A DNA stretch of 14,931 bases from an archaeon. Its GTDB lineage: Archaea > SpSt-1190 > DYHY01. The notes under the pieces were generated by a model that was given only the letters and a program-made list of their open reading frames with translations, did no database searches and had not been told where the DNA came from. Shown here piece by piece: positions 10,488 to 12,537 of the stretch. Location: NCBI GenBank assembly GCA_043803745.1, contig JAZDJS010000030.1:1-14931 (forward strand), given 5' to 3'. The position numbers and the translations under genes are program-made. Numbering within the stretch: position 1 is the first letter of the stretch; the number at the start of each line of letters is the position of its first letter.

Positions 10488-10961
10488 ATGGCGCGGATAC
10501 GAAAATTCCGGCTCTGTGAGGACTCTTCAGAGCTAGGGCGCATGATACGGCGGACAATACAATCTTGCAACTCCCGGGACTATCCTCCGAAAGTTATCCA
10601 GTTGCAGAAGAAGCGTTTCACCGAAAAGAGACTCTCGGAGGGAAACTATCCCCGCTGGGTTGCAGTTGAAAAGGGAAAACTCGTCGGAACTGTTGCAGCA
10701 AAGGCTGAATCGGAGATTTCAGCCCTTTTCGTTCTCCCTTCTTATCAGGGGCAAGGAATCGGGGAACGGCTTTTGAAAACCGCGGAAAATCACATTTTCA
10801 GAAAATGTCCCAAGGCAAAGCTCCATTCGAGCCTGGGTGCTGCCGGTTTCTATCTTCTGAACGGCTACCGGAAGATCAAAGTGGAAACTATCGGGGCGAA
10901 GACCGTACGATTCAAGGTAGTTTTGATGGAGAAGGACGCGCCCAAACGCAGTTTCTCTTGA
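10488..10961 (+). CDS. GNAT family N-acetyltransferase
   Basis: Acetyl-CoA motif LFVLPSYQGQGIGERLL and AAGFYLLNGY. Confidence 0.9.
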   Translation: MARIRKFRLCEDSSELGRMIRRTIQSCNSRDYPPKVIQLQKKRFTEKRLSEGNYPRWVAVEKGKLVGTVAAKAESEISALFVLPSYQGQGIGERLLKTAENHIFRKCPKAKLHSSLGAAGFYLLNGYRKIKVETIGAKTVRFKVVLMEKDAPKRSFS

Positions 10962-10992
10962 GCGGTTTTTCCCTGGGAGAAAAGCAGTTCTG

Positions 10993-11057
10993 GTGTCTGT
11001 GCTGATACACGGACCTCACGTGAACGCTCGGCAGGAGGAGGTCGAAGCATCAGGCGC
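10993..11057 (+). ncRNA. Candidate structured RNA 'B' carrying blocks antisense to the adjacent tRNA-Leu (strand uncertain)
   Basis: Hairpin GTGTCTG/CAGGCGC, TGCT/AGCA, GACCTC/GAGGTC. 11007-11018 equals 11156-11167 and 11031-11041 equals 11118-11128. Two G-U pairs in the basal stem favour the + strand. Confidence 0.4.
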
Positions 11058-11085
11058 GATTTGGTTCTTTTACGCCCGTCAACGG

Positions 11086-11107
11086 ATTTTTTCTTACAAG
11101 AAAAAAT
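11086..11107. terminator. Bidirectional T-tract terminator (10-bp inverted repeat)
   Basis: ATTTTTTCTT-AC-AAGAAAAAAT gives a T6 tract on both strands, 10 nt past the tRNA 3' end. Confidence 0.65.
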
Positions 11108-11116
11108 GGGTTGGAG

Positions 11117-11200
11117 TGCAGGAGGAGGGACTCGAACCCACGAAGGCACTAAGCCACACGGACCTCAACCGTGCCCCTTTGACCGCTTGGGTACCCCTGC
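11117..11200 (-). tRNA. tRNA-Leu(GAG), intronless, CCA not encoded
   Basis: Minus strand: acceptor GCAGGGG/CTCCTGC plus discriminator A; D arm CCC-AAGCGGTCAAA-GGG; anticodon arm CACGG-TTGAGGT-CCGTG; long variable arm GGC-TTAGT-GCC; T arm GTGGG-TTCGAGT-CCCTC. Confidence 0.95.
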
Positions 11201-11226
11201 TTTTTTCTTCTTTCTTCGCTTTTCCC

Positions 11227-11300
11227 CAGGGGACCCCTTCTCGGTTGGCCGCTTGTGCTCCTCAGAGCATCTCCGGCGGATGCCTTCGAGGTACCCCTGC
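11227..11300 (-). ncRNA. Candidate structured leader/RNA 'A': interrupted copy of the tRNA-Leu 5' third
   Basis: Minus strand GCAGGGGTACC-[34 nt]-CAAGCGGCCAA-[6 nt]-AGGGG vs tRNA GCAGGGGTACC CAAGCGGTCAA AGGGG. Closed by CAGGGG/CCCCTG and starts at the predicted TSS. Confidence 0.45.
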
Positions 11301-11323
11301 GTTTCCTTGCTCTGCACGCAAAC

Positions 11324-11342
11324 CCTTTTTAATGCTTTTTTC
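11324..11342 (-). promoter_or_regulatory. BRE/TATA promoter upstream of element A and tRNA-Leu
   Basis: Minus strand AAAAAGCA-TTAAAAA with TATA starting at 11332. The ~30-nt spacing seen for other genes here predicts a start at about 11300-11302. Confidence 0.6.
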
Positions 11343-11346
11343 CCCG

Positions 11347-12537
11347 CTAATCCTTCCTTTTTGAAACGGTGACTGTTGTCCGGATCTCCTTTTTCTCGAA
11401 CCTTTCAATCCGGGAATTGTCAATTTCCCCTTCAATTATCATCCTCCGGAGGGCGAACTGGTTGAACTCCTCTACTTTCTCCCAAATCCCCTTTTCCTTG
11501 AGCAGGGCCACAAACTCGTCCCGTTCCTTCCCTTCCTTCGGGAAGCCGATTACTTCGTCTCTCCTGACTTTTGCAACGAACTCCCTGCCAAAAAGGTTGT
11601 CGACCTTGTTCTCCTCGGAGAACTTGAGGATTGCCTCCCTGATTTTCTCAAGCTCCTCATCAAGGAGCCTTGTCTGGCTTTTCAGCTTCGCATAGGAATC
11701 CGCAAGGTTCGAGCCGGTTTCGGAGAAGTATTTGTTCTCTTTCGTCGTCGTTCCGGACTTTTTTCCGGCGAAAAGGTGAGCCCGCTTCGGGCAGATTTCC
11801 TGGTATTCACAGTATGGGCAGAGGGCGCTTTCCTTTGCCGGAAAGTTCTTTTCCTTCTTGATTTTTTCAATCAGTCCTGCGGTTCTCTTCGCAAGAGCCT
11901 CGAGTTCCCCTTTCGTCCTCTCCGACCTCATTTCCCTGTCAAGGGCAAGGAAATGCCAGACAAGCCCTATTTTCTTCGCATCGGGGAACTGCTGACGTAT
12001 CCCGAGGGCGTAGAGGGCAAGCTGCCGGTCCCCGTCAAGCTCCTCCTGGCTTTTCAGTTTCTTGTTCGTCTTGTAATCGTGTATTTCGTAATTCCCATTG
12101 CCCGAGGAAACGAGCCTGTCGATGAAGCCAATCATCTGCTCCCCGCCAGGGAGGAGAACGAGGACCTTCGCCTCAAGCCCGAGCGTCTTGCCTTTATCGA
12201 AAGGGGAATAGCGGGAATAATACTCCCGGAGATATCTCTCCCCCATTTTCTTGTAGTTGTCCTTGGTTAATCCGCGCGCCTCGTCGACAATCAAAATCCC
12301 CTCTTCCCAGGTTTCTTCCCAGGTCTTGTTGTAGATAGAGAGAAGCTCCTCAATTGTCGGGATTTTCTCGAATTGGACTAGCGTGTAAAGCTCCTCAAGC
12401 GCGCTGTGGACGGTTTTCCCCAGGAACTGCTCAACTGTCTGGGAAACCTCTACCTCGACCTTGTCAATATACCTGAACTTGAACTTGAGCGGGCACTGCT
12501 CGAAAGCCGAAATCCGTGAATGGGAGAACATCTTCAC
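11347..12537 (-). CDS. PD-(D/E)XK nuclease family protein (RecB/AddB-like, Fe-S Cys motif) with C-terminal extension
   Basis: FSHSRISAFEQCP, GKTVHSALE, LEAKV, GFIDRL, IHDYKT, QLALY and CPYCEYQEICP. Start is GTG 12537 or ATG 12531. Confidence 0.88.
   Translation of the reverse strand: MKMFSHSRISAFEQCPLKFKFRYIDKVEVEVSQTVEQFLGKTVHSALEELYTLVQFEKIPTIEELLSIYNKTWEETWEEGILIVDEARGLTKDNYKKMGERYLREYYSRYSPFDKGKTLGLEAKVLVLLPGGEQMIGFIDRLVSSGNGNYEIHDYKTNKKLKSQEELDGDRQLALYALGIRQQFPDAKKIGLVWHFLALDREMRSERTKGELEALAKRTAGLIEKIKKEKNFPAKESALCPYCEYQEICPKRAHLFAGKKSGTTTKENKYFSETGSNLADSYAKLKSQTRLLDEELEKIREAILKFSEENKVDNLFGREFVAKVRRDEVIGFPKEGKERDEFVALLKEKGIWEKVEEFNQFALRRMIIEGEIDNSRIERFEKKEIRTTVTVSKRKD

Follow-up and report, generated by a model that had tools for sequence, protein, structure and literature searches.

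The 14,931-nucleotide (nt) stretch of DNA analysed here (the window) is contig C30 of an archaeal metagenome-assembled genome (MAG), G000, of 1.23 Mb in 51 contigs (54% G+C, 90% complete). An intact tRNA-Leu(GAG) gene lies on its minus strand at 11116-11200, where it is called by ARAGORN and matched over the full model by Rfam RF00005 (11117-11200; 47 bits, E 7e-9). This match comes from an E-value run over 10800-11500, in which the cut-off was 29 bits; a gathering run over the whole window listed none, which is a filter effect. Both flanks of the gene contain short pieces of the tRNA itself, and it is with the origin of these pieces that we are concerned. Upstream, tRNA nt 1-11 (11190-11200), which cover the 5′ acceptor strand and lead into the D arm, recur at 11290-11300 with 11/11 identities, and nt 12-22 in the D arm (11179-11189) recur at 11245-11255 with 10/11. 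Downstream, a segment of the anticodon arm (11156-11167) is found again at 11007-11018 (12/12) and nt 62-72 (11118-11128) at 11031-11041 (11/11). All four blocks lie on the strand of the tRNA, in sense orientation. That they arose through DNA-level duplication of the gene has good support, and we consider it probable that they are partial duplicates of tRNA-Leu(GAG) left by a recurrent process of hairpin insertion and gene-end duplication operating in this archaeal order.

The blocks were compared with 5000 dinucleotide-preserving shuffles of both 200-nt flanks. Sense blocks of 11 nt or longer appeared in 45 of the shuffles, and no shuffle had more than one. The four blocks first reported in the original prediction are therefore real in coordinates and identities and exceed what chance provides. 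It could be argued that a single 11-mer is within the reach of chance, as the 45 shuffles attest, and that several contigs of the MAG end inside tRNA-linked tandem repeats. Nevertheless, chance matches or an assembly artefact are an exceedingly improbable explanation, as two blocks never arose in the shuffles, four genomes assembled independently of one another show the pattern, and in the sister species G001 the downstream element occupies the matching position.

The two upstream blocks form a single copy of tRNA nt 1-22 (22 nt), broken after nt 11 by an insert of 34 nt (11256-11289, minus strand) that ends in a tetraloop hairpin at 11256-11269. The premise that an ordinary attachment-site (att) duplication gives one contiguous fragment can thus be kept for this flank with the qualification that the one fragment has been split by a nested insert. 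The rest of the ~100-nt upstream insertion spans 11201-11244 on the same strand; within it, 11227-11232 pairs with fragment nt 2-7 and closes a rod-like fold, and no T-rich box was seen by eye. An A/T-rich, TATA-like box (11326-11333, minus strand) ends ~25 nt upstream of the 5′ fragment. Promoter and terminator assignments at this locus are predictions, made by reading the sequence for known archaeal features, and on these grounds the box is the probable promoter that now drives fragment, leader and tRNA. The predicted fold of the upstream element has a free energy of -36.4 kcal/mol (z -2.74), equalled by 3 of 200 shuffles, whereas for the downstream element the two strands give z -0.54 and -0.72, with 52 and 40 of 200 shuffles folding as well. 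The earlier statement that each flank folds as a hairpin consequently holds upstream and is lost downstream, on either strand.

The closest relative of the upstream element is a second copy in the same genome, at tRNA-Leu(TAG) on contig C1, where a unit 201-257 nt upstream of the gene is 89% identical to the 57-nt fragment-insert-fragment unit. By eye, this homolog has the tip hairpin only and the other stem partners are missing, so that the long-hairpin model of the upstream element receives no covariation support from it and was set aside. Archaeal bulge-helix-bulge introns have their junctions in 3-nt bulges with a 4-bp helix between them. In the minimum-free-energy and centroid fold of the upstream element, the single fold compared with this arrangement, the 5′ junction of the 34-nt insert is enclosed in a helix, the 3′ junction sits at the foot of the tip hairpin, and no intron of this kind was seen. 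The upstream insertion probably gives the pre-tRNA a structured leader of ~100 nt that would be removed by RNase P. The genome encodes a full-length RNase P RNA (76 bits) and an RNase Z (266 bits), so that ordinary end processing can handle a long leader; the idea of an unusual precursor architecture survives in this weak sense.

On the downstream side, a T6 run (11101-11106) is followed by a trailer module composed of an A/T hairpin and a conserved GC-rich motif (11065-11095, minus strand), which is probably the terminator region. It matches the trailer of tRNA-Ala(GGC) on contig C19 at 31 of 31 positions and has partial matches at four other tRNA loci, and its 8-mers are enriched downstream of tRNAs. 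The shared module, with T-run, A/T hairpin and GC-rich motif, is present at Leu(GAG), Ala(GGC), Ala(CGC), Val(TAC), Thr(GGT) and Ser(TGA); at C26:19634 the motif is found in reverse orientation with a two-hairpin insert in its centre. A degenerate sense copy of the tRNA 3′ end (11027-11046, minus strand) sits 75 nt downstream of the gene, directly preceded by a YTCRR junction motif, and consists of a T-loop-like TTCGA (11042-11046), the exact nt 62-72 block and CGAG. Next to it, 11007-11022 of the minus strand repeats the anticodon arm in sense orientation, covering tRNA nt 28-45 minus a deletion of 2 nt and including the anticodon GAG; its 16 matches and 2-nt gap give a score that was reached in 1 of 2000 shuffles. 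This copy overlaps an imperfect hairpin (10992-11014, minus strand) of a type common beside tRNAs in this genome. Internal pieces of the tRNA's own sequence are found in the flanks of 3 of 43 tRNAs in G000 and of none of 41 in G001. A further anticodon/variable-arm copy that seemed by eye to lie downstream of tRNA-Leu(TAG) was rejected, being an 8-nt match attained in 237 of 2000 shuffles.

The original prediction had favoured a tRNA-matched guide, chaperone or decoy RNA. Box C/D small RNAs (sRNAs) carry a C box (RUGAUGA) near the 5′ end, a D box (CUGA) near the 3′ end and a K-turn, their guide, 10-12 nt long and antisense to its target, abutting a D or D′ box. The notion of C/D-type antisense or other trans-acting guides targeting tRNA-Leu draws on the block length of 11-12 nt, which resembles that of archaeal C/D guides, on the fact that a plus-strand transcript would be antisense to the tRNA, and on CUGAUG-like strings beside some copies. 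All four blocks are sense, however, and so cannot act as antisense guides, and no antisense block of at least 9 nt was found on the tRNA strand within 200 nt on either side of the gene. Inspection of both strands by eye revealed CUGAUG-like strings at the 5′ side of the downstream element, no D box at its 3′ side and no terminal C and D box pair. In Rfam E-value searches, RF00005 at true tRNAs was alone significant, no snoRNA or sRNA family appearing and all other matches falling far below their gathering scores, and no existing family accounts for the flanks. Moreover, the upstream element is missing from the sister species and the anticodon block does not follow the tRNA between the two species (see below). 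Guides of this kind are therefore very improbable, and the proposal of a guide, chaperone or decoy RNA finds no support.

Self-matching blocks had been suggested as something to look for at other tRNAs, and they proved to be widespread. For this census ARAGORN calls were used (48 in G000, reduced to 43 tRNAs by removing 5 that span more than 160 nt), and a copy was defined as an exact sense match of at least 9 nt to the tRNA's own gene end, the last 22 nt being sought within 300 nt for the downstream count and the first 25 nt for the upstream count. A copy of the own 3′ end lies downstream of 29 of the 43 tRNAs and a copy of the own 5′ end upstream of 12. Reverse placement was never seen, neither for 3′-end copies upstream (0/43) nor for 5′-end copies downstream (0/43), and BLAST places all flank copies in the orientation of the tRNA. 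A genome-wide 12-mer search for copies far from their genes yielded an overwhelming number of chance matches. Mismatched pairings of tRNA and flank gave 47/1714 (2.7%) downstream and 24/1714 (1.4%) upstream. In G001, of the same genus, the copies number 20/41 downstream and 6/41 upstream; in G003, of the same family, 13/24 and 0/24; in G004, of the same order, 8/26 and 1/26. The outgroup G019, a complete genome from another family, has none (0/23 on both sides). These figures concern the tRNAs examined, out of 44, 43, 42 and 42 Rfam matches in G001, G003, G004 and G019, respectively, and, as these genomes are kin, the counts are not independent. A downstream copy also occurs at single tRNA-Leu loci of other small archaeal genomes (G009, G020 and G027). 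The self-copy pattern is thus genome-wide and lineage-wide and no peculiarity of tRNA-Leu. Copy and gene are separated by 75 nt downstream and 100 nt upstream at Leu(GAG) and by 30-250 nt elsewhere, and the intervals hold hairpins, promoters and terminators without any open reading frame (ORF).

The content of the copies indicates what was duplicated. They frequently run on into the non-tRNA trailer, for instance over 77, 79 or 95 nt at 100% identity, and they contain CCA solely where the gene encodes it. The copies mirror the gene and not the mature tRNA, which renders an origin from mature tRNA, as well as primer-binding roles, unlikely. Among the nine tandem repeats of G000 with a period of at least 25 nt, four begin at a tRNA 3′ end and three more lie at contig ends. 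At several loci the T-rich terminator module stands after the last copy instead of after the tRNA, which is the expected product of an insertion at the gene end that carries a replacement end. It was also observed that contigs break within tRNA-linked tandem units (C24 start with C19 start, C10 end with C14 end; a Lys unit of period 44 and a His unit of period 73), and the assembly is limited thereby.

Unrelated tRNA loci also share modules that are not tRNA sequence, with identities of 31/31, 63/63 and 52/53. The inserts are composed of recurring short hairpins, one module having the stem type of 10995-11014, and none of the hairpin modules has a match in Rfam. A strict version of the tetraloop-hairpin motif seen at 11256-11269 has five sites in the genome, all five at most 222 nt from a tRNA, and of the 53 sites of a looser version 18 lie within 300 nt of one. 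The A/T hairpin module is present in another family too. When the 75 distinct downstream copies of G000, G001 and G003 are taken together, YTCRR directly precedes 29 (background 1.3%) and GAYYTYR lies within 45 nt of 34 (background 4.5%). A connection between the hairpin modules and genuine tRNA introns was considered and dropped, as the Tyr, Trp, 'Ile-TAT' and Leu(CAA) introns show no clear module motif by eye.

The comparison with G001 dates the two flanks differently. The tRNA-Leu(GAG) genes of the two species are 96.5-97% identical over 86 nt. Upstream of the gene, a nuclease gene and the next ORF are syntenic, with 55% and 48% amino-acid identity, respectively. The former (11347-12537, minus strand), immediately next to the tRNA locus on its upstream side, encodes a Cas4-like PD-(D/E)XK nuclease whose final 57 residues cannot be aligned to its ortholog in G001. 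Between the last aligned codon of this gene and the tRNA lie 320 nt in G000, as against 75 nt in the sister species. The 5′ fragment is absent upstream of both tRNA-Leu(GAG) and tRNA-Leu(TAG) of G001, and 11201-11244 has no alignable counterpart ahead of the G001 tRNA, the alignment score being attained by 335 of 2000 shuffles. A promoter-like block of 19 nt that surrounds the TATA-like box and stands upstream of the fragment in G000 ends 34 nt upstream of the tRNA in G001 (16/19 identities; 17 of 2000 shuffles). The missing fragment, the shorter spacing and the promoter-like block next to the G001 tRNA together indicate that the upstream element was inserted in the G000 lineage.

The downstream element is kept in G001, whereas its anticodon-arm copy (11007-11022) is not conserved: the anticodon stem of the G001 tRNA has changed and the flank has retained the old hairpin sequence, and the 12-nt block thus shows no covariation with the tRNA. 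In a metagenome collection from which records close to the window's genome may be absent, an 18-mer of the conserved downstream element matched 77 stretches, none with a tRNA-Leu 3′ end or the hairpin nearby, and all were consequently taken as chance. A 15-nt 5′ copy stands at -113 of tRNA-Val(TAC) in either species and bears the substitutions of that species' own tRNA, while the inserts between copy and gene are unrelated, a situation that fits recurrent insertion at one site. A 79-nt element is further found upstream of tRNA-Ala(GGC) at C19:3706-3784 (92-14 nt upstream of the gene) and at G001 L032, and combines tRNA nt 2-20 with a hairpin, a TATA-like box and a D-arm antisense segment.

Among the known structures closest to this pattern are the partial tRNA genes left at att sites. 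PMC9897764, on mobile-element integrations into tRNA genes, places the fragment 9-23 kb from the gene, and PMC3293823 describes a partial copy 1.8 kb away and ties these events to intron gain and scattered tRNA fragments. As in the cases covered there, the copies described here are same-orientation partial copies beside a restored complete gene, 3′ parts frequently begin in or near the T loop, and presence differs among relatives. The direct repeat in gene orientation is observed at the locus, as is an insertion polymorphism: the syntenic locus of G001 lacks the upstream element found in G000, and the downstream copy is shared. By contrast with the 9-23 kb and 1.8 kb given in those papers, the copies here are 30-250 nt away. 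No kb-sized, integrase-encoding element lies between the repeats, the 75 and 100 nt at Leu(GAG) containing no genes. Further differences are the lack of an ORF in the intervals elsewhere and of an integrase in the MAG, the involvement of both gene ends and of two thirds of the tRNAs, the tandem units and the junction scaffold. The mundane alternative admitted in the original prediction, decayed duplicates or integration-type scars, is the better fit, although these would be scars of an unusual sort, order-wide, miniature, polar and sharing a sequence scaffold.

Two other known systems deserve comparison. The t-elements of plant mitochondria are tRNA-like structures that serve as processing signals for RNase P and RNase Z. 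They resemble the present elements in being tRNA-derived partial sequences outside tRNA genes, and a subset of the latter may form an acceptor-like helix next to a T-arm-like hairpin. Unlike t-elements, the elements described here have no downstream gene that needs processing, and the fold is confined to that subset, from which Leu(GAG) is excluded.

Non-canonical introns and split or permuted tRNA genes of archaea offer another parallel, since short hairpin-rich inserts at D-arm and T-loop positions are known there as well. The flanking pieces might accordingly serve as alternative exons, or be what is left of a tRNA-Leu with several introns, split or permuted, whose inserts the splicing endonuclease takes out, an option to which the order of the downstream pieces, 3′ end followed by anticodon arm and thus permuted, lends some colour, as does the D-region intron of ~31-37 nt that the sole tRNA-Leu(CAA) of G000 appears to carry. 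We nonetheless regard it as improbable. The inserts lie in fragments, while the functional tRNA-Leu(GAG) is uninterrupted and contiguous and, at 47 bits over the full model, needs no assembly from pieces; the junctions of the 34-nt insert fall in or at the base of helices in the minimum-free-energy fold and not in 3-nt bulges 4 bp apart; the downstream pieces include neither a 5′ acceptor strand nor a D arm; and the T6 run stands between them and the tRNA. As to the tRNA-Leu(CAA) just mentioned, ARAGORN reports G000 C10:17898-18019 as an intron-containing tRNA-Arg(GCG), and excising ~31-37 nt of its D-loop region yields tRNA-Leu(CAA), an isoacceptor otherwise missing. The excised insert, rich in hairpins, lies between the two copies of an 8-nt direct repeat that corresponds to the start of the anticodon stem, and is probably a genuine non-canonical intron.

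The most plausible course of events is that short, hairpin-bearing inserts enter or adjoin tRNA genes and duplicate the adjoining gene end, always leaving an intact tRNA. At Leu(GAG), at least three events are discernible. An old event would have produced the 3′-end copy, from the T-loop-like segment to the acceptor strand, 75 nt downstream of the gene, which is common to the sister species. A second event, specific to the G000 lineage, would have been an insertion of ~100 nt after tRNA nt 22 that duplicated nt 1-22 and displaced the old promoter upstream. In a third, the 34-nt hairpin insert may have entered the upstream duplicate and a patch of the anticodon arm may have been copied into the downstream hairpin. 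The likeliest mechanism would be either a Campbell-type single crossover with small cassettes that bear a tRNA-identical segment, or templated insertion during repair, after which unequal crossing-over and gene conversion would hold the copies identical and alter their number. Such a model agrees with the polarity of the copies, the restoration of the gene, the displacement of promoter and terminator, repeats of variable length and the tandem units. Today the tRNA would be transcribed from the displaced promoter, the structured ~100-nt leader being cut off by RNase P, and the downstream copy, lying beyond the T6 run, would need no function.

Several observations weigh against this account. PF00589, PF00239, PF01548, PF01797, PF07282 and PF01867 have no match in the 90%-complete G000, in which no tyrosine recombinase, resolvase, IS110 transposase, Y1 transposase, TnpB or Cas1 was found, and the proposed recombination is therefore left without an enzyme in hand. 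The inserts, at 30-250 nt and without an ORF, are far below the sizes of known integrations. In G001, the 18-mer 11027-11044 is conserved at 18 of 18 positions and at the same distance from the tRNA, within a spacer that is otherwise unalignable, and the hairpin 10992-11014 at 21 of 23 positions, both differences lying in the loop. The two-part scaffold GAYYTYR...YTCRR occurs at 27 of the 75 downstream copies, against a background of 0.1%. The upstream element of Ala(GGC) is 90% identical over 79 nt between G000 and G001, compared with 80-84% for the coding DNA covered by that comparison, and the differences in its hairpin fall in the loop. Taken together, the conserved Leu downstream element, the scaffold and the conservation at Ala(GGC) suggest selection on at least some elements. 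It was additionally noted that no PF00589 tyrosine recombinase whatsoever, Xer-type included, was detected in G000.

A rival account consequently has to be taken seriously, according to which the elements, or at least the downstream ones, arose by duplication and are now cis elements held by selection and kept in agreement with their tRNA, either as tRNA-end mimics that, in the manner of plant-mitochondrial t-elements, signal processing, stability or termination to RNase P, RNase Z or the CCA-adding enzyme, or as DNA sites such as decoy recombination targets. The conservation in G001 and the scaffold directly before the copies speak for it, as do the occurrence of the trait across the order at 31-67% of tRNAs against 0/23 in the outgroup and the persisting identity of copies and tRNA end in both species, although the latter can be maintained by gene conversion from 30-130 nt away. 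When downstream copies were paired with their own upstream sequence and ranked against mismatched partners for the ability to close an acceptor-like hairpin, 9 of 57 came within the top 10% and 23 within the top 25%, which again favours a function; the median rank, however, is 0.36, so that such hairpins are not general, and the Leu(GAG) copy, with a duplex rank of 0.96, forms no acceptor-like helix. Furthermore, the downstream Leu element folds no better than shuffled sequence, copy number and presence vary between the sister species, 100%-identical tandem units point to recent churn, no Rfam family matches, and the presence of both RNase P RNA and RNase Z leaves no processing gap to fill. 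On balance we judge a cis function unlikely, yet well within the range of serious alternatives. Missing processing enzymes as the reason for the elements were discarded on the last-named ground. The idea of a minihelix, in which an inverted copy of the 3′ end would precede each downstream copy, was likewise abandoned, as its signal is weak (contiguous runs averaging 5.8 with the own sequence and 5.5 in the controls) and absent at Leu(GAG).

Among other features of the window, its genes include those for a diphthine synthase and Trm5b, which fits an archaeon. A tandem repeat with a period of 150 nt (2.1 copies, 95% matches) occupies 524-841 inside the large ORF 3-1706, for which no NCBIfam match was found. 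Elsewhere in G000, and away from tRNAs, three homologous two-hairpin motifs (C8:28729, C12:11210 and C26:25315, minus strand) lie ~15-25 nt upstream of an ATG and may represent a 5′-leader element.

As a rule, partial tRNA genes are infrequent and are the scars that integrated elements of kb size leave behind. In G000, two thirds of all tRNA genes bear miniature, polar duplicates of their ends, as do a third to a half of those sampled in three relatives, and the pattern is best read as a miniature, order-wide variant of the process that forms tRNA-gene fragments. More speculatively, and with rather little confidence, we suggest that the order maintains an active, tRNA-gene-specific delivery of hairpin cassettes into D- and T-loop regions, which would duplicate the gene end without a known recombinase and would place a scaffolded element, matching the tRNA end, next to the majority of tRNA genes, the conserved downstream elements perhaps having been recruited as 3′-end mimics or decoy recombination sites. 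The duplicates also matter for annotation, where fragments of this kind may pass for guide RNAs, split tRNAs or additional tRNA genes. The route by which introns arrived in archaeal tRNA genes is described as open in a 2026 preprint (10.64898/2026.10.13.758758), and if the interpretation favoured here is true, these archaea would offer a tractable case of how intervening sequences and fragments arrive in such genes. Should the cassette process itself prove true, it would provide a live view of the origin of non-canonical introns, tRNA fragments and split genes.

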